Made by a program: the position numbers and the translations under genes. DNA of 57,132 bases from a virus. Shown piece by piece: positions 1,263-57,132 of this stretch (its first letter is position 1; the number at the start of each line of letters is the position of its first letter). Under the pieces are notes generated by a model, which saw only the letters and a list, made by a program, of their open reading frames with translations, did no database searches and was not told the DNA's origin. The stretch lies in IMG/VR virus record IMGVR_UViG_3300048917_000273, positions 1 through 57,132 of that record; one strand, 5' to 3'.

Positions 1263-3194
1263 CTACGGCGTGGTCACTGCGAGTGCGTCGGCGTACATGA
1301 CCAGCTGCGCACCGACGGCCCACGACGTCAGCTTTCCATACATCGAGACGCGCGCGATCGTGGCGCCAGCCGGGGGCTGGACACTCGCCACTGACAGCGC
1401 GCCGCCGCTCGCCGGGCCCGTGGTCAGATTGTCGACGCGCAGGGACGCCGACGCCGAGCGCCAGTCGATCTGCAGCTGCATGGAGCCGAGCACCGCGGTT
1501 CCCGCGAGCAGCTGCATCACGCCCCACATCGTGGCCGAGAAGCGGTACGCGGCATCCGTCGGCAGGGCGACATCCTGGTAGGCGCGCAGCGTGCCGTTCG
1601 TCCCGGCGTTCGTGGTGGTCACGGCGATCTTGAACGACGCCGTACCGACGGCGGCGAGGTCCGTGCTGCGCGCGCCGCTCGTCACGGCAGGTGTGAGGAC
1701 CGTCGACGACGCCGCCCAGCCCACGGCGTCCGTCTCCACCGACGGATTGATCGAGTGGTTCGTCGCGACGACCTGCGTGCCGGACGACGCCAGTTCGCCG
1801 GACGGGTACTCGGCCAGGTTCGTCGGAACGTCGGCAGCGAGGAGCGTGCCCCAGTTCGTGATCTCCGGCGTATAGCCGACGCCATACATACGCGGCTGCT
1901 CGGCCGTCAGGGTGAACTCGACGATGTAGCCCCAGCGCGCGTACGTGCCGCCGTAGCGCTCGCCGCGCTCGAGCTTCGTCTGGATGAGCGGAGCCGTCGT
2001 GCACTTCACGCCGTGCAGGACGCGGGTGTGCAGGTCGACGCGCGCGGTGTAGACCTCCCACGGCTCCTCGTCTGGATCGTAGGCCGGGGCGCACTCGACG
2101 AAGAACGTCATGTCGCTCGTTCCGCAGGACGAGCCGGGGTGCGTCGAGCACCCCTTCTCTGCGAGGCGCGAGTCGAGCCAGGAGAGCCCGTATTCGAGCC
2201 CGGCCTCCGACAGGGCAGTGAGCAGCACGCGGAAGCGCACAGCGCGCGACGTGCGCCGCTGGCGGCCGATCACGCCACCCTCGTCGATGCGCTCGACGAC
2301 CGGCGCCTGGTTCGTGGAGTCGGCGAGGTTCTCCGCCGAGATGCAGTAGACGCCGAGGAAGTCCTGCGAGTCGGCGTTGGTGAGCGCACCCTCGTCGTAC
2401 CAGGGCGCCTCGGAGATGTTGTCGTAGGAGTACAGCGTCGTCGGGTCGACGGGGTTCTCGGCGCGCGTCTCGTAGACGCTGGTCGAGGCATCCGGCGTCC
2501 CGGTCCACTCGTACTGGATCAGGCGGCCGCTCGGGTCGCTGCCGTCGAACGCGGGACCGGTGGTGCCGGATTCGGCGCACACGGACGAGACGTAGAACGT
2601 GGCGTACTCCGGGGTCAGGCCCGTCGAGTCGAACTCGAACAGCGCTGTCACCGCGCCCTCGGGTGGCACCTGCGTGGTGGAGACGATCGTCACCTGGTCG
2701 GTGGTCACCGCGGCGTCCGAGCCCGCGACCGGCGAGCCGATGGTTGCGCCGCCCGCGTCGCGCCAGGTGATCACGACGTGGAACGGGACCGAGCCAGCAT
2801 CGATGCACATCGACGCCTGCACGGTGAACGGGACATCCGGGGTGACCGGGACCGGAACGGTCCACTGCGCCTTCGTCGGCGTGACGCCGGAAGACACCAC
2901 CCAGAGGGCGGTGCCCATGTTGTTCGGCGCGTCGTCCTCGCGGCCCATGGCCACGGTCAGGCTGCCCCAGCCGGTGGTGTCGACGCCGCACTTCGGGTTC
3001 GTGACGAGGTTCGTGCGCACGACCGCCCACGGTGTGTACGTCGTCGTCTCGTCATCCGAAAGCATGTCGTAGATGCCATCGCACGGCACATCGTCGAACC
3101 AGTCGATCGGACACGGCGCCGTCTGCGCCGTCAGGATCGCCCTGGCGTTGTTGATGATCTCAGTGCCGCCGAAGCAGAAGTACCCGTCCCACAA
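1263..3194 (-). CDS. minor tail protein (first gene after tape measure) with carbohydrate-binding-module-like repeats
   Basis: ORF track, 643 aa. TTG start at 3194 with a GAGGGA SD 5 nt upstream. Repeated NLVTNP..TTGW and INPSVETDAVGW motifs. The FDGS..YEWTGT motif is shared with the 811-aa fibre. Confidence 0.75.
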   Translation of the reverse strand: MWDGYFCFGGTEIINNARAILTAQTAPCPIDWFDDVPCDGIYDMLSDDETTTYTPWAVVRTNLVTNPKCGVDTTGWGSLTVAMGREDDAPNNMGTALWVVSSGVTPTKAQWTVPVPVTPDVPFTVQASMCIDAGSVPFHVVITWRDAGGATIGSPVAGSDAAVTTDQVTIVSTTQVPPEGAVTALFEFDSTGLTPEYATFYVSSVCAESGTTGPAFDGSDPSGRLIQYEWTGTPDASTSVYETRAENPVDPTTLYSYDNISEAPWYDEGALTNADSQDFLGVYCISAENLADSTNQAPVVERIDEGGVIGRQRRTSRAVRFRVLLTALSEAGLEYGLSWLDSRLAEKGCSTHPGSSCGTSDMTFFVECAPAYDPDEEPWEVYTARVDLHTRVLHGVKCTTAPLIQTKLERGERYGGTYARWGYIVEFTLTAEQPRMYGVGYTPEITNWGTLLAADVPTNLAEYPSGELASSGTQVVATNHSINPSVETDAVGWAASSTVLTPAVTSGARSTDLAAVGTASFKIAVTTTNAGTNGTLRAYQDVALPTDAAYRFSATMWGVMQLLAGTAVLGSMQLQIDWRSASASLRVDNLTTGPASGGALSVASVQPPAGATIARVSMYGKLTSWAVGAQLVMYADALAVTTP

Positions 3195-9348: not shown

Positions 9349-10434
9349 TCATGCTCCCAGCTTTGCGAGGTTCCAGGTGGAGGTCTGCCTGGTCAGGAGG
9401 TAGGTGCCAGCGACGCGCGATGCGCCCTGGACGGTGGCTGTGCCGAGCACGATCACCGTGACCTGCGATCCAGGTGCGTTCGTGCCGAGGTTTGAGATCG
9501 TGTTGATCGTCACGTTCGCCCCGGTCGCGACCTCGACGACGGTCCCCGTGAACACGGAGATGCCACCGACGCTTCCTGAGATCGGCTGGTATGTGGGGGT
9601 GATGTAGGTATCCAGCCCTGCCGTCTGGATGTCACCCTGGACCTCGACGAAGTACGAGTCGTACTTCGGCGTGTACTGCATGTCGATGACGCCGTAGCTC
9701 GGGAAGCGCAGGATCGTCCGGTACGTCGGCGCGAACCCGTCGTTGAGGTAGTAGGTCTCGACGACGGCGGATGCCCCGACGAGTAGGGGGAGGTTCTCAT
9801 TGTCCGACGACGCGATCTCGGGGAAGTCTGCCTGCAGGCTGGTCGTCGTATAGATCCCGACGCCGGGCGTGCGGATGGCGTTGAGTTCGGCGCGCGAGTG
9901 GAAGACCGGCGGCTGGGCCTCAGCGGCGGATGCCGCGGCGGCAGAGGCACTTGCGGCCGCGGCATCCGCGTTCGCCTGCGTCTCAGCCACGGCCTGCAGC
10001 CAGTCGTCGAGCGACTGACCAGGGTCCGGCGGCACCGGAAACAGGGTCGTCAGGTCGACCGACCCAGACCCCTGCGGCAGCGCGAACGTGACCGTGTACG
10101 TCTTGAAATTCGGGACGGAGATCGTCGCCGTCCACGTCCAGTTCACCGGCTGCAGATCGGTGTCATCGGTGCAGATCAGGAACACGCCGACCTGGCCGTC
10201 CGGCGAGACCAGCTGTCCGGTGGCGTCGGTGAGAGCCTGGATCTGCGAGAAGAAGATCGTCACCGGCGGCGTGGCCGAGACGTTCTTCGCCTGCTGGATC
10301 GACGCGGCGAAGTTGACCTTGACGCCCTCGATCGGTACGCCGTCGGGATCGCGGTCAGGGTCGGCGCTGTCGATGACGGCATCCATCGCCGCCCATGTCA
10401 CCATGCGCGTCTGCACGTTCGATGGCAGTGTCAT
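9349..10434 (-). CDS. virion structural protein, two domains joined by an Ala-rich linker
   Basis: ORF track, 361 aa. Linker sequence ANADAAAASASAAAASAAEAQ. Lies within the structural block. Confidence 0.7.
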   Translation of the reverse strand: MTLPSNVQTRMVTWAAMDAVIDSADPDRDPDGVPIEGVKVNFAASIQQAKNVSATPPVTIFFSQIQALTDATGQLVSPDGQVGVFLICTDDTDLQPVNWTWTATISVPNFKTYTVTFALPQGSGSVDLTTLFPVPPDPGQSLDDWLQAVAETQANADAAAASASAAAASAAEAQPPVFHSRAELNAIRTPGVGIYTTTSLQADFPEIASSDNENLPLLVGASAVVETYYLNDGFAPTYRTILRFPSYGVIDMQYTPKYDSYFVEVQGDIQTAGLDTYITPTYQPISGSVGGISVFTGTVVEVATGANVTINTISNLGTNAPGSQVTVIVLGTATVQGASRVAGTYLLTRQTSTWNLAKLGA

Positions 10435-23843: not shown

Positions 23844-24267
23844 CCGCCTGCTCCACTTCTGCGGGGTCGATGACGGTCAGGCGCACGGCCATGCGAACGT
23901 CGCCCAGGGTTGCCTCGACGGTCTCGGTGGATCCGGCGCCGAGGAAGCGCGCGCGGCCGATCTGCATGGAGCGGCGACGCAGCTGGTCGATGCAGCCGCA
24001 GTACAGCGCGTAGCTGTACGCCTTCGCCGCCATCCACGAGATGTCGGCGACCTTGTCGCTGGTGAACTCGATGCGCAGCAGGATGCCCGCCGAGTCGGTC
24101 GACTGGTCGATGACGCCACGGCCGACGGCATAGGGCACCGGAACCCAGCGCCCGGAGCCATCGCTGAGGGCCTCGGACTCCATCTGGCGCTGCATCAGCT
24201 GCAGGGTCGAGTAGCCCCAGTCGCTCAGGTCGATGAGGCGGATGCGGGATTCGAGCTTGGTGCTCAT
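23836..24267 (-). CDS. hypothetical protein
   Basis: ORF track, 143 aa, with an ATGA overlap with the upstream gene. Confidence 0.75.
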   Translation of the reverse strand: MSTKLESRIRLIDLSDWGYSTLQLMQRQMESEALSDGSGRWVPVPYAVGRGVIDQSTDSAGILLRIEFTSDKVADISWMAAKAYSYALYCGCIDQLRRRSMQIGRARFLGAGSTETVEATLGDVRMAVRLTVIDPAEVEQADA

Positions 24268-24704
24268 CTCAGTTCCTCCATGTTCGGCTTGGGTGTGATG
24301 CGCCGGGCGTCAGCCCAGACTTTGCGGGATCCACGCCAGCCGACGTGGGGGTTGATCTGCCACATCGTCGACGACGAGCGCAGCAGGATGCCTGCCTTTC
24401 GCAGCGGGGCGATGGCGCGGTAGAAGTTCTTCGACGTGAGCCCAGCTTCGGTGGCGATCTCCGTCGCCGTCATCCGCGCCCAGGGCTGTCCCTCGCGATA
24501 GTCGGCGAGCACGACGTCGATGATCTTCATCTGCGTAGGCGACAGCGCCGAGAGGTACTCGGCCAGCGCGTGCACTGGGATCTGCATGTACATCACCTCT
24601 TCATCGGCGTACGCTCGGCGTTGCGGAGTCCTGACCTTGGCCGGAGTGATCTCGCCGTTCTCGTGAATCGTCCCGACTACGGGCCCGTTGAATTCCCCTG
24701 GCAT
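24264..24704 (-). CDS. winged-helix DNA-binding protein, first gene of the leftward arm
   Basis: ORF track, 146 aa. MTATEIATEAGLTSKNFYRAIAPLRKAGILLR resembles a MarR-like wHTH. Confidence 0.7.
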   Translation of the reverse strand: MPGEFNGPVVGTIHENGEITPAKVRTPQRRAYADEEVMYMQIPVHALAEYLSALSPTQMKIIDVVLADYREGQPWARMTATEIATEAGLTSKNFYRAIAPLRKAGILLRSSSTMWQINPHVGWRGSRKVWADARRITPKPNMEELR

Positions 24705-24735
24705 GGAAGTAACTATACCCCCAGGATGGAAGTAA
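24703..24735. repeat. direct repeats ATGGAAGTAA x2 (23-bp period), with a degenerate third copy at 24752..24759
   Basis: Copies at 24703-24712 and 24726-24735. The first overlaps the start codon of 24264..24704. Confidence 0.7.
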
Positions 24736-24741
24736 GGTCAC
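24712..24741 (-). promoter_or_regulatory. candidate leftward promoter giving a leaderless transcript
   Basis: In minus sense: GTGACC/TGACCT (-35-like), a 17-18 nt spacer, then TATAGT (-10, plus coordinates 24712-24717). The -10 ends 7 nt before ATG 24704. Confidence 0.4.
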
Positions 24742-24931
24742 CCCGAGGAGCGAAGTGACCGAATGGGCACCTTCCCCTACTCCCGACTGGGATCGCCCCG
24801 AGTCCTTGTGTCTTCTGTATCTATTCATCCCTCTCAGCCACCTCCTCAGGGTGACGAGCGCTGGGGTTCCCAGGGTGAGTCACGTCCCTCCACTTCTGTC
24901 TAACAAAATATCAGAGGCGACCCCTGCCCTC

Positions 24932-24948
24932 CATCTGTAATACAGATG
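24932..24948. repeat. 17-bp palindrome CATCTGTA-A-TACAGATG in the AT-richer control region
   Basis: Read directly. It is followed by a GTCCCGAG half-site. Confidence 0.7.
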
Positions 24949-25080
24949 TCCCGAGAACACACGCCCGAGTGGAGGACCGGGTAGCGTCCCCCCGCCGCGC
25001 CGCGGACCGAACGGGCGACGTGGGGGCCCGTGTGTGTGGGCCCGGTGGGCGGCATCCGGCGCGCGGCGCGTGGCAGACGG

Positions 25081-25125
25081 AGCGGCCGCCGATTTCCCCT
25101 CGCGGTGGGCTGATCGGCGGCCGCT
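25081..25125 (-). terminator. hairpin terminator of the stand-alone leftward gene
   Basis: AGCGGCCGCCGAT, a 19-nt loop, then ATCGGCGGCCGCT (13-bp perfect stem), 9 nt after the stop at 25135. Confidence 0.6.
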
Positions 25126-25134
25126 GTGGTTGCG

Positions 25135-25908
25135 TCAGACGTTGACGGTACGTCCGGCCGTGACTGCCTCCTCGACGGCGGCGCTGATCGCGGTGAACAC
25201 GGCGAGGTCGGATTCTGCGACCGTGAATCCCTTAACGCTGACGCGGCGTGCGACTTCGGACAGGAGGTCGGACAGGCCCGCCGCTCCCAGCGTGGCGGCT
25301 TTACCCTGCGGCGCGTCTTTGCCGTGCGACGCCGGGGCGGCGGATTCGGGTTCCGGCGCGCTGGTGTCGGCCGTGGACTTTGCGCCTGCCACGCGAGTCT
25401 GCGGGCCTCGCTTTTCGGTGCTGATCGCGGCCGCGTATTCTGCGGCGGCGGCGCGCTTCGCTTCGGCTTCCACGGCCTTGACCATTGCCGCGCCAGTGCG
25501 GCTCTTGGCGGCGGTGTCGACGGCGGCGAGGACGTCGGCGCTTCCGACGTAGTTGGCCAGGCTGACGACGGCGGCCGCGACGCTGACGCGCTGTGCGTCC
25601 GTCAGCTTCGGGCCGGTCTCGCCGACTGCGAGGATGGCCCGGGCGGCGACGTCGTAGCGGCCGATGCTGGACTTGCTGAATCCGCGGACGGGCGTGCCGC
25701 CGTTTGCGAACGTTACGGCCGCGACCATTTGGCGGATGCTGGACGCGCCCGCGGCTTTGAGGTCGACGATGGCCTGGACGCGGTTTCGTTCGTCCAGTGC
25801 GGTGACGCTGAACGCGTCGACGACACGGGTGAGCAGGTCCGGCGCGATGAGTGCGACCTCGGCGGGTGCCGTGGTGGCGGCGGGTGCGGTGCTGGTGGAC
25901 TTCGACAT
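25135..25908 (-). CDS. stand-alone leftward gene; Ala-rich protein with a possible HTH (candidate regulator)
   Basis: ORF track, 257 aa. GGGAGG SD. It has its own promoter-like element and terminator. SSIRQMVAAV..GFSKSSIGRYDVAARAI is HTH-like by eye only. Confidence 0.75.
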   Translation of the reverse strand: MSKSTSTAPAATTAPAEVALIAPDLLTRVVDAFSVTALDERNRVQAIVDLKAAGASSIRQMVAAVTFANGGTPVRGFSKSSIGRYDVAARAILAVGETGPKLTDAQRVSVAAAVVSLANYVGSADVLAAVDTAAKSRTGAAMVKAVEAEAKRAAAAEYAAAISTEKRGPQTRVAGAKSTADTSAPEPESAAPASHGKDAPQGKAATLGAAGLSDLLSEVARRVSVKGFTVAESDLAVFTAISAAVEEAVTAGRTVNV

Positions 25909-25950
25909 TTGGTGCCTCCCGGCGGTAGGTGCCGTTCCCCTGCGGAACGA

Positions 25951-25987
25951 CTAGGTACATAGTCCACCCTAGCGGGGCGAGTGTCAA
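25951..25987 (-). promoter_or_regulatory. leftward promoter PL with a CTAGG/CCTAG inverted repeat
   Basis: In minus sense: TTGACA (plus coordinates 25982-25987), then ctcgccccg, CTAGGG, tg, GACTAT. The inverted-repeat arms are at 25951-25955 and 25968-25972. The layout matches the three rightward promoters. Confidence 0.5.
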
Positions 25988-26008
25988 GTCTGGTTGCGCT
26001 GTGCAACT

Positions 26009-26024
26009 GTCCCGAGGTTGGGAC
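26009..26024. repeat. 16-bp palindrome copy (arm variant)
   Basis: GTCCCGAGGTTGGGAC. It sits exactly between the divergent -35 boxes at 25982-25987 and 26040-26045. Confidence 0.85.
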
Positions 26025-26039
26025 ACCTGCGGCGGCCGG

Positions 26040-26076
26040 TTGACACGGTCCCAGCTAGGGCATAGAGTTCTCCTAG
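26040..26076 (+). promoter_or_regulatory. rightward promoter PR1
   Basis: TTGACA, a 17-nt spacer, then TAGAGT (26063-26068). CTAGG (26055-26059) and CCTAG (26072-26076) flank the -10. Confidence 0.65.
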
Positions 26077-26137
26077 TTGTTCAGCCAAACGGGCTGAGCG
26101 TCGGACGCCGCGAGTGCGGCGGAATGGAGCGGTTCAG

Positions 26138-26278
26138 ATGGAACGACGTACACGCCTGGTGCCGAATTGGCAGGGCATCGGAACCTGGTGCCTGATCCTG
26201 GCGGCCGTGGCGCTCGCCGTCGCCGCCGCATATGTCCCGGCGATGGTTGCCCGGGCGGCCGTGGGGTGCGGCGCATGA
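26138..26278 (+). CDS. small membrane protein (46 aa)
   Basis: Hand translation: MERRTRLVPNWQGIGTWCLILAAVALAVAAAYVPAMVARAAVGCGA. ATGA overlap with the next gene. It is below the ORF-track cutoff. Confidence 0.4.
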   Translation: MERRTRLVPNWQGIGTWCLILAAVALAVAAAYVPAMVARAAVGCGA

Positions 26279-26763
26279 GCGCGCGTCGGCGGTCGACACA
26301 CGTTCCCGTGTCCCGACGTTGGGACGCGGCCGTAGCCGCGACCGTAGGCGCGTCCATCGTGGCGCTGATCACGGGCGGCGCGCTGGTTGCGGCGGGCGGA
26401 CACGCTGCCGAACCGGCCGCGGCCGCGCACGTCGTGAGCGTGCCGGGCGGCGCGTCGGACGCGCTCCGGATCCGACACACGGCACCCGTCCCGGATGCCG
26501 CGCCGCGCCCCGCTAAAGTGGCGCGGTTCACCCCGGACGCGCCCCGCGTGGCACCCGTCCCGAACCTGACCGGCGCGCTGGTGCCATGCACGTCGGAGGA
26601 TGCACCCGGCCCGTGCTACTGGGACGCCGGCACGGCCGGTAACGGCGTGGGCACGTCGTGGCTGGCCTGGCACGGCCGCGTGTGGTACCCGATCCCGCAT
26701 GGCGACACCAGCGTTACGTTCCGCGGCGTGACGTACTGGGACAGTGGCACGGCGTCGGAGTGA
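26275..26763 (+). CDS. signal-anchored/secreted protein
   Basis: ORF 26167..26763 frame, from ATG 26275 (MSARRRSTHVPVSRRWDAAVAATVGASIVALITGGALVAAG...). Cys/Trp-rich C-terminus. Confidence 0.65.
   Translation: MSARRRSTHVPVSRRWDAAVAATVGASIVALITGGALVAAGGHAAEPAAAAHVVSVPGGASDALRIRHTAPVPDAAPRPAKVARFTPDAPRVAPVPNLTGALVPCTSEDAPGPCYWDAGTAGNGVGTSWLAWHGRVWYPIPHGDTSVTFRGVTYWDSGTASE
26310..26325. repeat. 16-bp palindrome copy (arm variant)
   Basis: GTCCCGACGTTGGGAC. Coding, read as SRRWD. Confidence 0.85.
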
Positions 26764-26770
26764 CGTACGG

Positions 26771-26799
26771 CAGGCCGCGGCGCATGTCGTCGCGGCCTG
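26771..26799 (+). terminator. hairpin after 26275..26763
   Basis: CAGGCCGCG, an 11-nt loop, then CGCGGCCTG. It lies immediately before the PR2 -35. Confidence 0.5.
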
Positions 26800-26800
26800 C

Positions 26801-26837
26801 TTGACACGGTCTGAGCTAGGCCGTAGTTTGTACCTAG
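26801..26837 (+). promoter_or_regulatory. rightward promoter PR2
   Basis: TTGACA, a 17-nt spacer, then TAGTTT (26824-26829). CTAGG at 26816-26820 and CCTAG at 26833-26837. Confidence 0.65.
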
Positions 26838-26863: not shown

Positions 26864-26879
26864 GTCCCAAGGTCGGGAC
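26864..26879. repeat. 16-bp palindrome copy (arm variant)
   Basis: GTCCCAAGGTCGGGAC. It lies between PR2 and ATG 26896. Confidence 0.8.
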
Positions 26880-26895
26880 AGATTGTGAGGATGAC

Positions 26896-27123
26896 ATGAG
26901 CACCTACACTTCCACCGATGAGACCCTGATCGGCGAGACACCCGAACGCATGACCGGCGCCGAGCGCCGGGCGCACCGCCGCATGGCCGACGCTGAACGC
27001 CACCTCATCGCGGTGCTGACGTGGGGCACTGACGAACCGCCCACGGCCGCCGCCGTCGACGCGGCCGAAGCGCGATGCAACCGCGCATACCAAGTGTGGC
27101 GGCGGGCATGCGGGGCGCGCTGA
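26896..27123 (+). CDS. hypothetical protein
   Basis: ORF track, 75 aa, with a GAGGATGAC SD. Confidence 0.65.
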   Translation: MSTYTSTDETLIGETPERMTGAERRAHRRMADAERHLIAVLTWGTDEPPTAAAVDAAEARCNRAYQVWRRACGAR

Positions 27124-29141: not shown

Positions 29142-29503
29142 CCGTCACGACCGCCGAGATCCTGGCATCCATCGACGCCGACACGCCGCTCGCCGAACTG
29201 GTCGACGTCGTGATCCGCAAGCTGCGCACCGCAGAGCTGCCCGAACTGGTCAAGGAAGAAGTGACCGACGATGGTGAGACGTACTGGGCACTGCGCTGCC
29301 CGGTCTGCGAGGAACTGGTCAGCGACTCCGACGATCTCTACACGGTCGACTTCGCCGAGCGCTGGTCATCCGTGACGCCGCGCGACGAGGACTGGGTCGA
29401 GGTGTCGGAGGGCGACTCGACGTTCGACGGCGCGTACTACCTGCACGACAGGGGTCCGCGCCACCTGGTCCGTCTGCCCGACGGGTGGACGGAGGAGTGG
29501 TGA
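29138..29503 (+). CDS. hypothetical protein (CPVC motif)
   Basis: ORF track, 121 aa, with a GTGA overlap. Confidence 0.7.
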   Translation: MTVTTAEILASIDADTPLAELVDVVIRKLRTAELPELVKEEVTDDGETYWALRCPVCEELVSDSDDLYTVDFAERWSSVTPRDEDWVEVSEGDSTFDGAYYLHDRGPRHLVRLPDGWTEEW

Positions 29504-29688
29504 GCGCGCTCGCCGTCCGCTGCCCGTCGTGCAATTCGGCGCCGGGCATGCTGTGCACCCAGCCTGACAGTCGCTCACGCCACGTCGTGACGCGAACCCA
29601 CTTCGTCCGCGAGCACCTCGCTGACGACATCGAGAAGGGGCGCGTGATCAACGCGCCGACGATCAGTCCCAGCCTTGGGACAGAGTAG
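29500..29688 (+). CDS. small Cys-containing protein
   Basis: ORF 29485..29688 frame. GTG at 29500 gives a GTGA overlap after GGAGGAG. The start is uncertain (alternatives 29485 and 29497). Confidence 0.55.
   Translation: MSALAVRCPSCNSAPGMLCTQPDSRSRHVVTRTHFVREHLADDIEKGRVINAPTISPSLGTE
29666..29681 (+). repeat. 16-bp palindrome copy
   Basis: GTCCCAGCCTTGGGAC. It occupies the last codons of 29500..29688 (SPSLGT), 16 nt before ATG 29698. Confidence 0.9.
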
Positions 29689-30859: not shown

Positions 30860-31128
30860 TGCCGCGCTCGAAGGGCTGGCTCAAGGCTGACGCGCTGCGC
30901 ACGGCGTACATCCGTGAGCAGTACGCCACCATCGGTCCGGACGGCTGCCGTCACGTCGTCGAGTTGTACTGGGACGGGCAGCAAAACCAGTACGTGGTCA
31001 CGCAGCGTGACTACTCGGGGCCGCAGGAGATGCGGTTCAAGCACACCGACGTCCGCTTCTTGGAGAGCCAGCTGGGCGAGGCGCGCGAGTGCTTCACCGA
31101 GGCCGTCGCCGAGATCGAGTCCGCTTGA
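30859..31128 (+). CDS. hypothetical protein
   Basis: ORF 30670..31128 frame, from ATG 30859 (TAATG overlap). Confidence 0.65.
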   Translation: MPRSKGWLKADALRTAYIREQYATIGPDGCRHVVELYWDGQQNQYVVTQRDYSGPQEMRFKHTDVRFLESQLGEARECFTEAVAEIESA

Positions 31129-31164
31129 CACGGACTCACCACTAGGGTAGGGTTATACCCTAGT
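31125..31164 (+). promoter_or_regulatory. rightward promoter PR3
   Basis: TTGACA, a 17-nt spacer, then TAGGGT (31148-31153). A 9-bp inverted repeat, ACTAGGGTA (31141-31149) and TACCCTAGT (31156-31164), spans the -10. Confidence 0.6.
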
Positions 31165-31198
31165 CAAGCAACACCGGGGCATCCGCTCCACCGACACC

Positions 31199-31214
31199 GT
31201 CCCAACCCTGGGAC
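31199..31214 (+). repeat. 16-bp palindrome copy
   Basis: GTCCCAACCCTGGGAC. It lies 18 nt before ATG 31233 and is followed by CGCGAAGGGAATCGC. Confidence 0.9.
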
Positions 31215-31232
31215 ACCGCGAAGGGAATCGCA

Positions 31233-32240
31233 ATGACCATCACCGCATCGACCACGACGTCCACGCTCGCCGGGTTCATGGACGGACGCAACTGGATCGG
31301 CCACGCCGACGAGCGCCGCGTCTACGACGGGGCCGTCCCCACGCAGGACGCCATCGACCTGCTCAGCTACCCGCTCGTCGAGGCCAACCTCACCGCCACC
31401 TGGATCGACGAGAACGGCGTGTCGAGCGTCGACCTGCCCGACCGCAAGGCGATCGTCCGGGCTGACACGGGCGTCGAGTTCGGCATCTTCAAGGGCGGCT
31501 ACCAGATCCACCACCCGGCCGAGTGGCTCGTTGAGCGACTCGACCTGCTCACCCACGGCGGGCTGCAGATCGCGACCGTCGCCGTCACCAACGGCGGGGC
31601 TCGCGTCATCGTCCAGGCCCAGCTGCCCGAGACGATCACGGCAACGGCGCCCGGCGCCGAGCCCGTGCAGCACCGGCCGTGGGCATCGGCGGCAACGTCG
31701 ATGGACGGCACCATCGCCACGACGTACGGCGTCGGCGAGACGCTGCTCATCTGCGAGAACCAGCTGCACCTGCCCGGCTTCCGCCAGTTCATCGCGAACT
31801 TCAACGCGGTGCACAAGGTGAAGCACAGCCGCAACTCGCTGCTCCGTCTCAACGAAGCGCGCCTCTCGCTCGGCCTGGTCGTCGAGCAGGTGGCCGACGA
31901 GTTCGACCGCGAGTTCAAGGAACTGGTGTCGGCCTACGTCAGCGACGCCAAGTTCAACGAGATCGTCAAGGCGTTCACCGGCGTCGACACGGCGAAGGAT
32001 GGGCGCTCGAAGACCATGGCCGAGAACAAGGTCCGTGCGCTGAACGACCTGTGGCGCAATGACGAGCGCGCCGCGTCGTGGAGGAACTCGCAGTACGGCG
32101 TGCTCGCCGCGTTCAACACCGCCCAGCAGTGGGAGTTCGGCTCGGACAAGGGGCGCACCGAGCGCAACCAGAACAACCTCATCACCGGCAAGCGCGAGCA
32201 GTTCGACGCGAACATCCTGCGCATGCTGCAGACCGCCTGA
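31233..32240 (+). CDS. DUF932-like (phage/plasmid-associated) protein
   Basis: ORF track, 335 aa. The pattern KAIVRADTGVEFGIFKGGYQIHH..GGARVIVQAQLP..TSMDGTIATTYGVGETLLICENQL recalls the DUF932 family (from memory). Confidence 0.7.
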   Translation: MTITASTTTSTLAGFMDGRNWIGHADERRVYDGAVPTQDAIDLLSYPLVEANLTATWIDENGVSSVDLPDRKAIVRADTGVEFGIFKGGYQIHHPAEWLVERLDLLTHGGLQIATVAVTNGGARVIVQAQLPETITATAPGAEPVQHRPWASAATSMDGTIATTYGVGETLLICENQLHLPGFRQFIANFNAVHKVKHSRNSLLRLNEARLSLGLVVEQVADEFDREFKELVSAYVSDAKFNEIVKAFTGVDTAKDGRSKTMAENKVRALNDLWRNDERAASWRNSQYGVLAAFNTAQQWEFGSDKGRTERNQNNLITGKREQFDANILRMLQTA

Positions 32241-35403: not shown

Positions 35404-35668
35404 CGAGTACCCCCTGCCCGACCCTGGCCGGGAGCGCTTCTGGCACGGAGTGCACAACCCGAGCAGCGTGAAGACGCCGCTCACCCTCGAGCTTCGCGAG
35501 CGCACCGTGGCCAACGCCAAGGCTGCTGTCACGTTCTCGAAGCTCATCGCCAAGCAGCCGACGATCGCCGACCCGAAGGCGGTCAAGGAAGCAGCTGACG
35601 AGATCCTCATCCGCGCCGAGCGGGTCGACGACTTCATCGGCATCCTCAAGGAAGGAGAGGCCGCCTGA
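35387..35668 (+). CDS. hypothetical protein
   Basis: ORF track, 93 aa, with a GGAAGGAAG SD. Confidence 0.7.
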   Translation: MTKTPDEYPLPDPGRERFWHGVHNPSSVKTPLTLELRERTVANAKAAVTFSKLIAKQPTIADPKAVKEAADEILIRAERVDDFIGILKEGEAA

Positions 35669-35943
35669 TGCCCACCCAGGATCTGCGCAAGATCACCCTG
35701 CCCAAGACGCTCGACAAGCGCGTGAAGCGGTACGCCGCGAAGCACGGCATGAGCGAGTCTGAGGTCATCCGCACCGCGATGACCCAGTTCGAGGTCGCCC
35801 GCTACCCGGCCGAGAAGCCGGAGATGGTGAGCAAGACCATCTACATCTCACCGCCCGAGTACGGCGCCTTCACCACGAAGGCACGCAAGTCCCACACCAC
35901 CATCCGCCACGCCCTCGAGATCGCCTTGGAGAACCTGCTTTGA
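35668..35943 (+). CDS. ribbon-helix-helix DNA-binding protein (possibly tandem RHH)
   Basis: ORF track, 91 aa. ITLPKTLDKRVKRYAAKHGMSESEVIRTAM is followed by a second similar unit, IYISPPEYGAFTTKARKSHTTIRHALEIAL. Confidence 0.7.
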   Translation: MPTQDLRKITLPKTLDKRVKRYAAKHGMSESEVIRTAMTQFEVARYPAEKPEMVSKTIYISPPEYGAFTTKARKSHTTIRHALEIALENLL

Positions 35944-40145: not shown

Positions 40146-40174
40146 TTGACCTAGTGTGTGGCACACACTAAGAT
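40146..40174 (+). promoter_or_regulatory. promoter with an embedded 19-bp perfect palindrome (operator-like)
   Basis: TTGACC (40146-40151), a 17-nt spacer, then TAAGAT (40169-40174). The spacer is TAGTGTGTG-G-CACACACTA (40152-40170). The intergenic patch is AT-richer than its surroundings. Confidence 0.6.
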
Positions 40175-40203
40175 GTATTACATAAGTCACCGAAGGGAAT
40201 CAG

Positions 40204-45279: not shown

Positions 45280-46256
45280 CCAGCCAGGAACTCGTCGTCC
45301 AGTCCACCGCCTACAGTCGCGCCTCACTCGAGGAGCGTCAGCGCTACACCGCGGCGCTTGCCACCGCAGGCGACCTGCTGCCCGGCAGCATGCAGACCAT
45401 GCAGCGCGTCGACGGCCAGATGAAGAAGGTCGGCGACCGCGGCAAGGTGATGCTCATGGCGGAGACCGGCGACATGCTCGGCATCCACCCCATCGCCGCG
45501 CTCACCGGCGTGCACATCATCGAGGGCAAGCCGTCCATCTCGGCGAACCTGATGGGCGGCCTGGTGCGCAAGGCGGGCCACCGCCTCCGCGTCCGCACCG
45601 AGGGCAAGCTCGAGGACAAGACGCTCACCGCCACGGCGACGCTCGTGCGCAGCGACGACCCCGACTTCGAGTTCAAGGTCGTCTGGGACGTGGCCAAGGC
45701 CGAGCGCGCCGGGCTCTACCCCGGTAAGCCCAAGTCGAACTGGCAGACGTACACGGAGGCCATGCTCAAGGCGCGAGCGATCTCCGAGGTCATCCGCGAG
45801 GGTGCGCCCGACGTGCTCATGGGCGGCAACGTCTACACGCCGGAGGAACTCGGCGCGCAGGTCACCGAGCAGGGCGACCCGGTCGAGTACGAGGCCGCGC
45901 CGAGCGAGCCGCGCCCGGCCGTGCCGCCGCAGGAGAAGGTCGCTACGCCGATCGTCGACGAATCGACCGGCAACGCGGATGCCGCACAGGGATTCGCCGA
46001 CGCCGCGGCCGCCGCCGGGACGCGCGAGGACGTGCTCGAGATCTTCCGCCAGGCCAAGATGGCTGGCCAACTCTCCACGCTGATCTTCGTCGGCGACGAG
46101 GAACAGGAACTCGGGCAGTTCATCATCGGCATCGGACAGGCCATGGCCGTCGCCGAGACGGAGAACGGCGAGCCGATCCCCGACGAGGGTGAGCCCGTCG
46201 TCATGGACGAGGAGGTCGTCATCGCCGAGGTCGTCGAGGATGGCAGTGACTCGTGA
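45276..46256 (+). CDS. recT: RecT-family single-strand annealing protein
   Basis: ORF track, 326 aa. GIHPIAALTGVHIIEGKPSISANLMGGLVRKAGH. It is adjacent to the exonuclease. Confidence 0.8.
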   Translation: MTSQELVVQSTAYSRASLEERQRYTAALATAGDLLPGSMQTMQRVDGQMKKVGDRGKVMLMAETGDMLGIHPIAALTGVHIIEGKPSISANLMGGLVRKAGHRLRVRTEGKLEDKTLTATATLVRSDDPDFEFKVVWDVAKAERAGLYPGKPKSNWQTYTEAMLKARAISEVIREGAPDVLMGGNVYTPEELGAQVTEQGDPVEYEAAPSEPRPAVPPQEKVATPIVDESTGNADAAQGFADAAAAAGTREDVLEIFRQAKMAGQLSTLIFVGDEEQELGQFIIGIGQAMAVAETENGEPIPDEGEPVVMDEEVVIAEVVEDGSDS

Positions 46257-46549
46257 GCGATCGCATCCTCAATGTCCGGGTCTCCGAGGATGAGATGGCG
46301 AAGGTCGACGACCTCGCCGTGAAGATCGGGTCGACGCGGTCGGAGGCCGTGCGCTACCTCATCTTCCGCAACCTGCCGACGCCCATCGATCTCGACGAGG
46401 GTATCTGGCTGACGCGGTATCGCAACGATCCGCTCTCAGTGGGGGTCGACTTCTGGGCTGACGAGACGACAGCCCTGCGCGCGGCGAACAAAGACGAGAG
46501 TCTCATCGCCGAGCGGCATCCCGTCCGGCGGGCAGATGCCCGCGCGTAA
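46253..46549 (+). CDS. ribbon-helix-helix (CopG-like) protein
   Basis: ORF track, 98 aa. LNVRVSEDEMAKVDDLAVKIGSTRSEAVRYLI. Confidence 0.7.
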   Translation: MSDRILNVRVSEDEMAKVDDLAVKIGSTRSEAVRYLIFRNLPTPIDLDEGIWLTRYRNDPLSVGVDFWADETTALRAANKDESLIAERHPVRRADARA

Positions 46550-55828: not shown

Positions 55829-57132
55829 TGATACCTCCCGACGAGTTCGACGGCGATGTCCACGTTGTTCGGAGCCTCGGTCGACGGGGTGTCGACGACG
55901 ACGAAGTACGAGATGCCGCACGTCAGCACCGGCCACGTCGGCGGCGCGTCGTCCGATCCGTAGAGCAGGTGCGATGCTGTCGTCGCCGCGCCACCAGAAA
56001 CCTCAGCCCATGCGCCGCCGGATACGCCGTCGATGGTCAGGGTCGAGTTCGCCGGGATGTACGAGATCACCTGGTCAGAGCACCAGTCGTCACCGTCGAT
56101 CTGGTCGAACGTGCGATTGAACGGGTTTGCGTAGAAGCGCACGCGCACCTGGCGCTCGGCCTGGTCGCCGGTGGTCAGCACGACGATCGGCACCGAGTCG
56201 AAGAACTCGGCCACCTGGCCCGTCTTGATCACACCCCAGTAGCGCTGCCACTCGATGATCGTGTCGATGCACGCGTCATCGATGACCGGCGGCCGCGGCG
56301 GCGTCGGCGGCGGCGGGCAGTCGGGATCTGCGAGCGGGTCCACCACCGCGGTGTTCACCATGCGGATCGACTGCGACGCGTTCGTCGTGTCCAGCCACGA
56401 GTAGAGGTAGCTCGCGTCGTTCGGCGTGCTGCCATCGAAGTAGGGGTACAGCGTCGTCAGGGTGATCGCGATGCCGTCGGCGAGGATGGTGTCACCACCG
56501 ACCCAGATCGACCAGCCCGTCGAGCCAGGGGCATCCATTGCCGACACGCGCCCGTGCACGGCGCCGATCGGCGCGGTGCCGGTGGCGATGAGGCGTGTCG
56601 GGGAGTCGGTGGTCACAGCGACGACGTCGCCCAGGGAGCGCCCGACCTCGACGCCCGCGGCATCCGACCAGACGAGCACCGCGCGCATCGGCTGAGGGCG
56701 CGACGGCTGGACGTGGATGGATCCCCAGTACGTCGCGCCGCCGACGACATCGGCCAGCGTCGCGAGATCGATCGTCATGCCGAACTCGTACCCTGCGCTC
56801 GCTGGGTTCTGATCGGAGATCACGGTGTAGAGCACCGAGTAGTTCCCGAACATGCCGCCCGTGCTGCGCTGGCACGCGACGTTGCCACCGAGGTCTGTCA
56901 GGGCGGCCCACCCGGTGGGAACCCATCCCCGTGCGACCGACTTGGACTTGTTCACCGTGCCGGTCCACTGGTAGTCGATGTCTGCCGAGTCCGCGGTCGC
57001 GCCGTCGAAGTAGTCACCCGGCGACGTGTTCGGATTCGGCTGCTTCAGTGTCACCCACGCCGACCAGTCGGTCTGCTGCGCGTTGGCGTAGATCGCCGAG
57101 GCGCGCCAGCGGTACGTCGCACCCGGCGTCAG
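55825..57132 (-). CDS. C-terminal part of the 811-aa FN3 fibre gene (same gene as 1..1252; 57006..57132 duplicates 1..127)
   Basis: ORF 55825..57054 is in phase with the open frame at 1..1252 once the overlap is collapsed. The YFDG..Y.W.GT..S.S motif occurs twice. There is a PPPPTPPRPP linker. Confidence 0.85.
   Translation of the reverse strand: MTPGATYRWRASAIYANAQQTDWSAWVTLKQPNPNTSPGDYFDGATADSADIDYQWTGTVNKSKSVARGWVPTGWAALTDLGGNVACQRSTGGMFGNYSVLYTVISDQNPASAGYEFGMTIDLATLADVVGGATYWGSIHVQPSRPQPMRAVLVWSDAAGVEVGRSLGDVVAVTTDSPTRLIATGTAPIGAVHGRVSAMDAPGSTGWSIWVGGDTILADGIAITLTTLYPYFDGSTPNDASYLYSWLDTTNASQSIRMVNTAVVDPLADPDCPPPPTPPRPPVIDDACIDTIIEWQRYWGVIKTGQVAEFFDSVPIVVLTTGDQAERQVRVRFYANPFNRTFDQIDGDDWCSDQVISYIPANSTLTIDGVSGGAWAEVSGGAATTASHLLYGSDDAPPTWPVLTCGISYFVVVDTPSTEAPNNVDIAVELVGRYQ
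57006..57132. repeat. terminal direct repeat identical to 1..127
   Basis: Read directly. Confidence 0.95.

Follow-up and report, generated by a model that had tools for sequence, protein, structure and literature searches.

The genes of the virus IMGVR_UViG_3300048917_000273 run in two arms that diverge at a single site (positions 25909-26137), where two promoter-like sequences, PL and PR1, lie back to back, each with an inverted repeat built on CTAG around its -10 box. This locus raises the question of whether the repeat is an intrinsic part of the promoters, a structure that acts in DNA or RNA, or a binding site through which several promoters are controlled jointly. The window, i.e., the entire stretch of 57,132 nucleotides analyzed, ends with 127 nt that duplicate its initial 127 nt and thus represents a circular assembly and a complete genome of ~57,005 bp (about 57.0 kb). 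Its minus strand encodes terminase, portal, a MuF fusion protein, and a tape-measure protein, with the lysis and tail genes spanning the assembly junction, and its plus strand contains, between 26.1 and 49.2 kb, small early genes, DUF932, DUF7178, a DnaB-like helicase, an SSB, and RecET-like recombination genes. The highest protein identities to cultured phages were 40% (portal) and 42% (DUF7178), both to Microbacterium phages; those closest by portal we take to be lytic. Megablast of 8 kb of the window against 50,697 phage records gave no match, and no named phage cluster could be assigned to a genome whose nearest cultured proteins are ~40% identical. The genome is of the siphovirus type, and the phage is probably lytic and belongs to an uncultured high-GC (actinobacterial-type) clade.

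A sequence-only reading of this DNA had described four near-identical TTGACA promoters, each with a CTAGG/CCTAG inverted repeat, hereafter the dyad, bracketing the -10 box. All four were found where it had placed them (Table 1), with the -10 boxes that it had named (TAGAGT, TAGTTT, TAGGGT, and GACTAT) at 17 bp from TTGACA, and the repeat at PR3 indeed extends to 9 bp. The description as near-identical did not hold, since PL, PR1, and PR2 agree at just 25 to 29 of 38 positions, and the layout TTGACAC-N8-CTAGG, reported as common to the four, applies to all except PR3, which has N10. Each of the four sequences combines TTGACA, a 17-bp spacer, and (T/G)AnnnT, is intergenic, and points into downstream genes. 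The geometry and orientation are those of sigma-70/SigA-type promoters, and this geometry is kept in 24 cassettes from 6 genomes. Judged by sequence, PL, PR1, PR2, and PR3 are therefore very probably sigma-A/sigma-70-type promoters with a common dyad site over the -10 box. In the window the dyad has the form (A/G)CTAGG-N12-CCTAGT; its left half lies between the -35 and -10 boxes, ending 1 to 3 bp upstream of the latter, and its right half spans the position where transcription is predicted to start. The predicted starts fall within CCTAGT near 25952 (PL), 26075 (PR1), 26836 (PR2), and 31160 (PR3). The -35 box of PR3 shares bases with the stop codon that ends the preceding ORF.

Table 1. Features of the divergent region and the rightward early arm, in window coordinates; promoters, start sites, and transcripts are predicted
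Feature	Position	Strand	Details
Weak winged-HTH protein	24264..24704	-	Candidate regulator
Hairpin	25081..25125	-	Perfect 13-bp arms; directly after the 257-aa gene; no U-tract
PL gene	25135..25908	-	257 aa, Ala-rich, no family match; first, probably sole gene of the PL transcript
PL cassette	25951..25987	-	-35 TTGACA 25982-25987; -10 GACTAT 25959-25964
PL dyad arms	25951-25955, 25968-25972	-	CTAGG and CCTAG; predicted start site near 25952
Palindrome GTCCCG-AGGT-TGGGAC	26009..26024	.	In the 52-bp PL/PR1 spacer, upstream of both -35 boxes; predicted to be untranscribed
PR1 cassette	26040..26076	+	-35 26040-26045; -10 TAGAGT 26063-26068; dyad arms 26055-26059, 26072-26076
PR1 operon	26138..26763	+	Genes 26138-26278 and 26275-26763; two small predicted membrane-anchored proteins
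Hairpin GGCCGCG...CGCGGCC	26773-26797		Just upstream of PR2, after the PR1 operon
PR2 cassette	26801..26837	+	-35 26801-26806; -10 TAGTTT 26824-26829; dyad arms 26816-26820, 26833-26837
Palindrome copy in PR2 5' UTR	26864..26879	+	16 nt upstream of the ATG at 26896
PR3 cassette	31125..31164	+	-35 31125-31130; -10 TAGGGT 31148-31153
PR3 dyad arms (9 bp)	31141-31149, 31156-31164	+	ACTAGGGTA and TACCCTAGT
Conserved PR3 5' UTR	31176..31232	+	Hairpin GGGGC-AUCC-GCUCC 31176-31189; palindrome 31199-31214
Start-associated motif in PR3 5' UTR	31220-31229	+	GAAGGGAATC, then the DUF932 ATG at 31233
Tandem ribbon-helix-helix protein (Arc/CopG-like)	35668..35943	+	Late in the PR3 operon
Promoter of a second class	40146..40174	+	TTGACC-17-TAAGAT; own dyad CCTAGTGTGTG/CACACACTAAG, different from the CTAG dyad

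The number of promoter-like matches was not significant by itself, as 4 were found against 1.6 expected and at least 4 occurred in 10 of 100 simulations; it is the dyad, together with position and conservation, that makes the set significant. A relaxed genome-wide scan of both strands returned only PR1, PR2, PR3, and the promoter at 40146, all of them intergenic and in the correct orientation. The dyad stood out clearly: CTAGG-N12-CCTAG occurs exactly at four sites (25951, 26055, 26816, and 31142; about 0.3 expected), and with one mismatch allowed there were 5 matches against 0.28 expected, a number reached in none of 100 shuffles. The scarcity of CTAG outside these sites, also part of the sequence-only reading, was borne out by the counts, with 15 occurrences against 64 expected (~4-fold depletion), 8 of which fall within the four dyads. 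A dyad built on CTAG would gain high specificity in this genome.

We propose that the host primary sigma factor reads PL, PR1, PR2, and PR3 (TTGACA, 17 bp, TAGRRT-like -10) and that these promoters would initiate immediate-early units. The PR2 unit would comprise ~12 small genes and the PR3 unit DUF932, DUF7178, and further genes up to that of the ribbon-helix-helix (RHH) protein, while the hairpin that follows the 257-aa gene likely marks the end of the PL transcript. The 40146 promoter class is conserved in seven genomes and carries no CTAG dyad.

Related uncultured genomes were gathered by a DNA-pattern scan, by alignment-based locus searches, and by a protein search; they comprise L004/L007, L008, L011, L012, and L022 to L025. 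Relatives of DUF932 numbered 90. Single-protein locus searches for relatives gave no matches. Chance-level pattern matches in unrelated low-GC contigs (L001-3, L005, L006, L020, and L021) were excluded as evidence, and a site at 17597 of L008 was ruled out as a CTAG-class site, being the orthologue of the 40146 promoter. One genome of the L022 to L025 group stems from a Hadza gut metagenome. Promoters of the same class were found at the orthologous PL, PR1, PR2, and PR3 positions in five relatives (L007, L008, L022, L024, and L025), and the genes that separate PL from PR3 are mostly unconserved among relatives. The partial L011 contig provided no CTAG-class promoter, and the L023 lineage has a homologous PR1, with its -35 box and spacer, that lacks the dyad.

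The 24 cassettes gave the consensus TTGAC(A/C)-N10-11-(A)CTAGG-(g)TAnnnT-(n)gtaCCTAGT(T). When the arms were compared at 10 positions, 78% of the cells were complementary, against 23 to 45% with a slid partner, and the core dyad pairs were retained in 19 to 24 of the 24 cassettes. Compensatory double changes occurred in PR1 of L008 and L025 (CTACG/CGTAG) and in PR1 of L007 (CTAGT/ACTAG), and the covariation score of 0.233, compared with 0.129 in shuffles, was reached in none of 500 trials. The anatomy of the dyad, its statistics, its conservation, and its covariation are matters of observation. The centers of its half-sites are 17 to 18 bp apart (~1.65 helical turns, with 1-bp variation), and a 5-bp shift of the left arm is seen in the PL of two genomes, L008 and L025. 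Such a spacing fits a simple HTH dimer awkwardly. The most conserved arm, CCTAGT, sits on the start site and may in part reflect a preference for an initiation sequence, and the G's of the left arm fall at about -14/-15, in the zone of extended -10 contacts.

These last positions bear on the possibility that the dyad is an intrinsic promoter or structural feature, in which the G's make the -14/-15 contacts, the right arm provides the initiation sequence, and the symmetry results from quasi-palindrome correction or from selection for a cruciform that is extruded under supercoiling and thereby tunes the strength of the promoter. The L007 genome argues for this explanation, since its arms are symmetrically extended to 9 to 13 bp with outer sequences that differ from promoter to promoter and fold at -6.8 to -14.2 kcal/mol (z of -5 to -8), which hints at selection or mutational bias for self-complementarity; the strong conservation of CCTAGT at the predicted +1 is also compatible with it. 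In the window, however, three of the four sites, with arms of 5 bp and a loop of 12 nt (z about -1), cannot fold into a meaningful hairpin, and yet their core is kept. The single strands of PL, PR1, and PR2 fold at -2.5 to -3.5 kcal/mol (z of -0.4 to -1.1), no better than shuffled sequences, and a hairpin or cruciform was therefore rejected as the common mechanism for the window. Furthermore, the 40146 class and PR1 of L023 share the -35 box and the spacer but do without the dyad, which indicates that the dyad is an add-on regulatory site and not a promoter component, and the CTACG/CGTAG compensation preserves the core symmetry where arguments from the -14 G and from +1 predict nothing. We thus regard an intrinsic or structural origin as improbable. 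The site-specific, symmetric extension of the L007 arms is not predicted by independent recognition of half-sites.

A role in RNA was considered for both repeats of this region, the dyad and the palindrome between PL and PR1: dyads located in read-through transcripts would form hairpins for processing, termination, or insulation, and palindromes would form mRNA hairpins next to Shine-Dalgarno sequences that control translation or stability. This explanation, to which we assign a very low likelihood, gains from the location of PR2 and PR3 downstream of PR1 on the same strand and from the neighboring hairpin in the PR3 5' UTR, which shows RNA-type covariation that includes a G.U pair. With respect to the dyad, it is opposed by the fact that PL and PR1 bear one despite having no upstream transcription, and by the left arm of each dyad, which lies upstream of the start site of its own promoter and would not be transcribed from it. 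No U-tracts of the type that characterizes intrinsic terminators follow the dyads or palindromes of the window, and these elements matched no Rfam family.

The properties that remain are those of an operator: the dyad overlies the -10 box and +1, is common to the promoters, and is conserved beyond what promoter function needs. Because five relatives retain this layout, the dyad is most likely a common repressor-binding site, and from its sequence and placement we consider it most likely to be an operator at which a dimeric or tetrameric regulator would occlude the -10 box and the start site. That the promoters are active, that a protein binds the dyad, which protein this is, and that it represses are all inferred from sequence, and repression is preferred to activation on the basis of position. 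In the mechanism that we propose, a single phage-encoded dimeric or tetrameric DNA-binding protein would occupy the dyad at all four promoters and prevent open-complex formation, so that the early regulon, including PL, would be switched off jointly as infection proceeds. PL would be autoregulated if the protein that binds the dyad is its own product. An overall explanation that combines four early host-type promoters, a common dyad operator, and a separate palindrome system appears correct to us with slightly better than even confidence.

Three proteins are candidate regulators. The tandem RHH protein is a candidate binder of either the palindrome or the dyad; its gene was present at the same position in 9 of 9 related loci, it scored 24.1 bits with RHH_1 (cut-off 20.5), and it gave Arc/CopG-like PHROG matches. 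The winged-HTH gene has a promoter-like site of its own (GTGACC-18-TATAGT, 24741-24712) and almost no leader, and all contigs with homologues of this gene end short of the divergent region. The window also encodes a second RHH protein (RHH2, 46253-46549) and a Zn-finger protein (29485-29688). The 257-aa product of PL is a candidate on positional grounds, as a leftward gene of 246 to 296 aa comes first at the PL position in every relative. It matched nothing in Pfam, PHROG, or PDB, even with a 4-sequence profile, and a search of 5.8 billion proteins detected no homologues; a single-sequence AlphaFold model was of low confidence (pLDDT 53), and residues ~57-98 look HTH-like by eye.

If the 257-aa protein were a CI-like repressor that binds the dyads at PR1, PR2, and PR3 and at its own promoter, with the palindrome as a second operator, the region would be a lysis-lysogeny switch. 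The constant position of this gene within a divergent PL/PR1 arrangement, the HTH-like stretch, and the presence of the same dyad at PL, as autoregulation would predict, are all consistent with such a switch, and dispersed sites of the Cluster A type, to which the palindromes can be compared, are typical of temperate actinophages (PMC6550527). However, the HTH reading found no support in the databases, and no integrase, partition system (ParAB), or recognizable repressor/Cro family was found in any of the scanned ORFs. Two scans of 185,579 species genomes provided neither a prophage relative nor a host clue, and the nearest cultured relatives by portal are the Microbacterium phages mentioned above. 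The gene content thus does not support a lambdoid switch, and we judge a lysis-lysogeny decision at this locus to be unlikely. The sequence-only reading had seen here a classical divergent switch; this part of it was not sustained, as neither a recognizable CI/Cro pair nor an integrase was found and PL would drive a single gene, that for the 257-aa protein.

The palindrome between PL and PR1 had been read as a 16-bp element centered between the two promoters and as a second operator type of the switch. The distance of 52 bp given for the two promoters is correct when measured between the -35 hexamers, and the palindrome is present at 26009-26024, although it is imperfect, with 5 perfect arm pairs and one G/T position, and its center is 3 bp off the midpoint of the hexamers. 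It is a real element with a conserved placement, but it is one of a family of 18 dispersed copies and thus not a private second operator of PL and PR1. GTCCC-N6-GGGAC was found in 18 exact copies, and 21 matches were obtained with one mismatch, against 4.6 expected. The family has the form GTCCCA-N4-TGGGAC, or YGTCCCA-N4-TGGGACR with its flanks, and 16 of the 18 copies are in or adjoin the rightward early arm. Eleven to 12 of the 18 either precede a start codon by 9 to 50 nt (mostly 9 to 31 nt) or immediately follow a stop codon, and the start-associated motif GAAGGGAATC, present in 9 plus-strand copies, often follows the start-proximal palindromes.

A palindrome was located in the PL/PR1 spacer of 7 of 7 genomes, namely, the window, L022, L023, and L024, with one copy each, and L007, L008, and L025, with two each. 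Within each genome the arms do not vary, and between genomes they switch in concert: they read GCCCCA-N3-TGGGGC in L007, GTCTCA-N3-TGAGAC in L011 and L023, and GTCCCA-N3-TGGGAC in L008, L022, L025, and L012, with both GTCCCA and ATCCCA in L024. The flanks show a Y...R half-site preference and are non-complementary in 7 of the 18 copies. Taken together, the concerted switching of invariant arms, the Y...R flanks, and the spacer copy make a double-stranded DNA site that is recognized by its sequence more likely than a pure RNA hairpin. The RNA-level explanation outlined above draws on the proximity of so many copies to start or stop codons and on a strand bias of the loop in L008 (GCC/CCC/GCA/TCC in 16 right-arm sites and GGC/GGG/GGA in 3). 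It does not account for the copies in the untranscribed PL/PR1 spacer of all seven genomes, nor for a stem that is invariant within each genome instead of being merely complementary, and the concerted change of this stem points to sequence-specific recognition. The orientation bias of the central bases was inconsistent between genomes. Start-codon proximity and the biased loop of L008 are compatible with a role of the palindrome at the RNA level.

In the explanation that we prefer, the palindrome would be an element separate from the dyad, and a second phage protein that co-evolves with it would most likely be its binder, with the tandem RHH protein as the best candidate. Copies in the divergent spacer and upstream of the ribosome-binding sites of many early genes may act like a symmetric "stoperator." A comparison of the beta-strand residues of the RHH protein with the palindrome arms in nine genomes revealed no clear correlation. 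One may tentatively go further and propose a cis code of two layers, in which the CTAG dyad would define the immediate-early regulon and the palindrome (15 to 16 bp, genome-specific), placed in the divergent spacer and just ahead of the ribosome-binding sites of most early genes, would be read by the co-evolving tandem RHH protein as a symmetric stoperator that acts as a roadblock, a translational operator, or both; we consider this version possible but doubtful. If it were true, the concerted switching among the arms GTCCCA, GCCCCA, GTCTCA, and ATCCCA would mark groups of immunity-like specificity among phages without a lysogeny module.

These data define the early control region of a phage clade that has no cultured member closer than ~40% protein identity. 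They provide a testable regulon made up of four promoters joined by one dyad, a promoter class for contrast, and candidate regulators, and the copy of the palindrome in a non-transcribed spacer, together with the universal RHH gene, makes the question of DNA site versus RNA hairpin directly testable. The palindrome is a clean example of the concerted evolution of a cis element, and similar repeats occur in phages of Clusters O and K. For work in high-GC hosts, the compact, CTAG-based operator-promoter cassettes could supply orthogonal parts. None of these findings alters how phage regulation is understood at present; they concern an ordinary kind of phage control that is real and conserved.

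Several known systems invite comparison. Small RHH repressors such as Arc and Mnt of P22 bind dyads that overlap the -10 box or the start site, RHH tetramers of the NikR type recognize half-sites about two helical turns apart, and the palindromic operator of Mnt measures about 17 bp. The half-site spacing of NikR thus resembles that of CTAGG-N12-CCTAG, and the style of the Mnt operator resembles that of the GTCCCA palindrome. Every genome of the window clade contains an Arc/CopG-like RHH gene, whose product is a candidate binder, but this protein differs from those repressors by its tandem, two-module architecture.

The immunity system of Cluster A mycobacteriophages combines the Pleft operator with dispersed stoperators, asymmetric 13- to 14-bp sites that follow the direction of transcription and are recognized by a monomeric repressor of the L5 gp71 type (PMC6550527, PMC9283540). 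Common to both systems are a two-arm genome whose junction carries an early lytic promoter and a single motif that is found in the region of the early promoter, recurs at many places along the transcription units, and co-varies with the genome; in the window this site is dispersed in 18 copies, one of them in the PL/PR1 spacer. In contrast to the Cluster A motif, the site described here is palindromic and not an asymmetric, oriented target of a gp71-like protein, and the promoter-proximal operator, the CTAG dyad, is distinct from the dispersed motif. Neither a gp71-like repressor nor an integrase was found in the window. A further parallel is provided by the start-associated sequences (SAS and extended SAS) of Cluster K mycobacteriophages, which are reported to place a conserved motif, preceded by an inverted repeat, right in front of many start codons (PMC3203893), in the order in which palindrome, GAAGGGAATC, and start codon occur here. 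The sequences differ; in addition, not all of the palindromes described here are associated with starts, and one is in a non-transcribed spacer.

A likeness in kind was found with the Cluster O mycobacteriophages (Corndog group), which have 8 to 9 SigA-like promoters and more than 30 occurrences of a 17-bp dyad, TGTTCGG-N3-CCGAACA (PMC4351075). In both cases high-GC actinophages possess a few strongly predicted host-type promoters, including a divergent pair, and a short, scattered dyad that lies largely in short intergenic regions and partly within genes, that has arms invariant in each genome, and whose function is putative (PMC4351075). The resemblance is one of kind only, since the Cluster O sequence TGTTCGG-N3-CCGAACA is unrelated to the repeat described here: the arms are of 6 bp with N3/N4 instead of 7 bp with N3, there are 18 copies that are concentrated in the early arm, and the phages themselves are unrelated, the best portal identity of the window to any cultured phage being 40%. 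Cluster O promoters are also not described as having a common dyad over the -10 box (PMC4351075), and in the literature searched no CTAG dyad was reported for the promoters of actinophages. By analogy, the architecture reported here appears to resemble the combination of promoters and dispersed repeats seen in Clusters O, K, and A, without being a member of any of them by sequence or protein, and the system as a whole would work like known early-promoter/operator regulons of phages.

The window is a circular assembly and the complete genome of ~57,005 bp, because its first and last 127 nt are identical (1-127 and 57006-57132). Its two arms diverge at ~26.0 kb and converge at ~49.2 kb. On the left of the divergent region, the 257-aa gene transcribed leftward from PL, one of the four predicted early promoters, is followed by a non-coding gap that is locally richer in AT. 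This gap contains several hairpins, a direct repeat, TTACTTCCAT(C/G)C, that occurs twice, and a promoter-like GTGACC-18-TATAGT element from which the mRNA of the adjacent weak winged-HTH (wHTH) gene would be almost leaderless. This gap is a possible location for a late-control region or for the ends of the genome. All of the Logan contigs that carry a homologue of the wHTH gene (L014-L019) break off at 88-858 nt 5' of this homologue, either within the homologue of the PL gene or shortly past it. These breaks may reflect a repeat close to the divergent region that disrupts assembly, or the physical ends of the genome.

Features of the window and their counterparts in related phage contigs
Feature	Position in window	Strand	Details and positions in relatives
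tRNA-Thr(CGT) call (ARAGORN)	2473-2550	+	Antisense inside 643-aa ORF 1263-3194(-)
MuF-like virion-associated protein, 1070 aa	14668-17880	-	
Non-coding gap 3' of PL gene, 430 nt	24705-25134	-	
Promoter-like element in gap	24741-24712		
Start-associated motif GAAGGGAATC	27398, 28037, 28540, 31220, 32307, 39034, 40192, 45262, 46723	+	
PR3 5' UTR hairpin, GGRGC-AUCC-GCYCC	31176-31189		L007 8466-8479; L008 8283-8296; L022 ~9944-9957
RHH protein	35668-35943		Positional orthologues in 8 loci
Fifth predicted host-type promoter, TTGACC-17-TAAGAT	40146-40203		L007 20393; L008 17597; L022 20363; L023 18088; L024 20713; L025 20009

The early promoters share a CTAGG/CCTAG dyad around the -10 box, and a similar layout, TTGACAC-N8/9-CTAGG(GG)-N-(CC)CCTAG(T), was also found 5' of a gene in seven unrelated low-GC viral contigs from IMG/VR with 41-48% GC (L001-L003, L005, L006, L020, and L021). 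L001 and L006 retain the arms and differ in the spacer. The number of these matches is near chance expectation, and they were therefore left out as evidence. A promoter of a different class is predicted at 40146. Its spacer holds another dyad of 23 bp, CCTAGTGTGTG-G-CACACACTAAG, and ATGTAtTACAT is found downstream. This promoter is kept in six related phages, where it precedes the same gene and is devoid of the CTAG dyad.

The dispersed palindrome, GTCCCA-N4-TGGGAC in the window, is also present at a homologous site inside the DUF7178 gene in L011 (4160) and L012 (143). Since these homologous copies carry genome-specific arms (GTCTCA versus GTCCCA), in-gene copies take part in the concerted change as well. 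L024, a 60.6-kb contig from a Hadza gut metagenome, holds two variants, GTCCCA-N3-TGGGAC (n = 5) and ATCCCA-N3-TGGGAT (n = 5). An extra HTH_17 (excisionase-like) gene was noted in the left arm of this contig.

Among the encoded proteins, the RHH protein was found at the same position in 9/9 genomes, and it appears to consist of two RHH-like modules in tandem on a single chain, namely, an N-terminal strand-helix-helix and a second module, 'TIYISP...TIRHALEIAL'. The MuF-like protein carries a fused 2H-phosphoesterase/2'-5' RNA ligase-like domain. The match of this protein to the anti-CBASS protein Acb1 was weak (E = 0.0016) and fell short of the cut-off. The tRNA-Thr(CGT) call is probably a false positive.

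The 5' UTR behind PR3 contains a small, conserved hairpin that covaries in an RNA-type manner, with a G.U pair in the window, A-U in L007 and L008, and G-C in L022; a different hairpin takes its place in L024. This element may act as a 5' stabilizer of the mRNA of DUF932, the first gene behind PR3. A further motif, GAAGGGAATC, consists of a Shine-Dalgarno sequence between invariant flanking bases, and nine plus-strand copies of it were found directly 5' of start codons. On both strands of the window, there were 10 matches versus 1.9 expected, and a copy of the palindrome often precedes the motif. This motif is reminiscent of the start-associated sequences of Cluster K.
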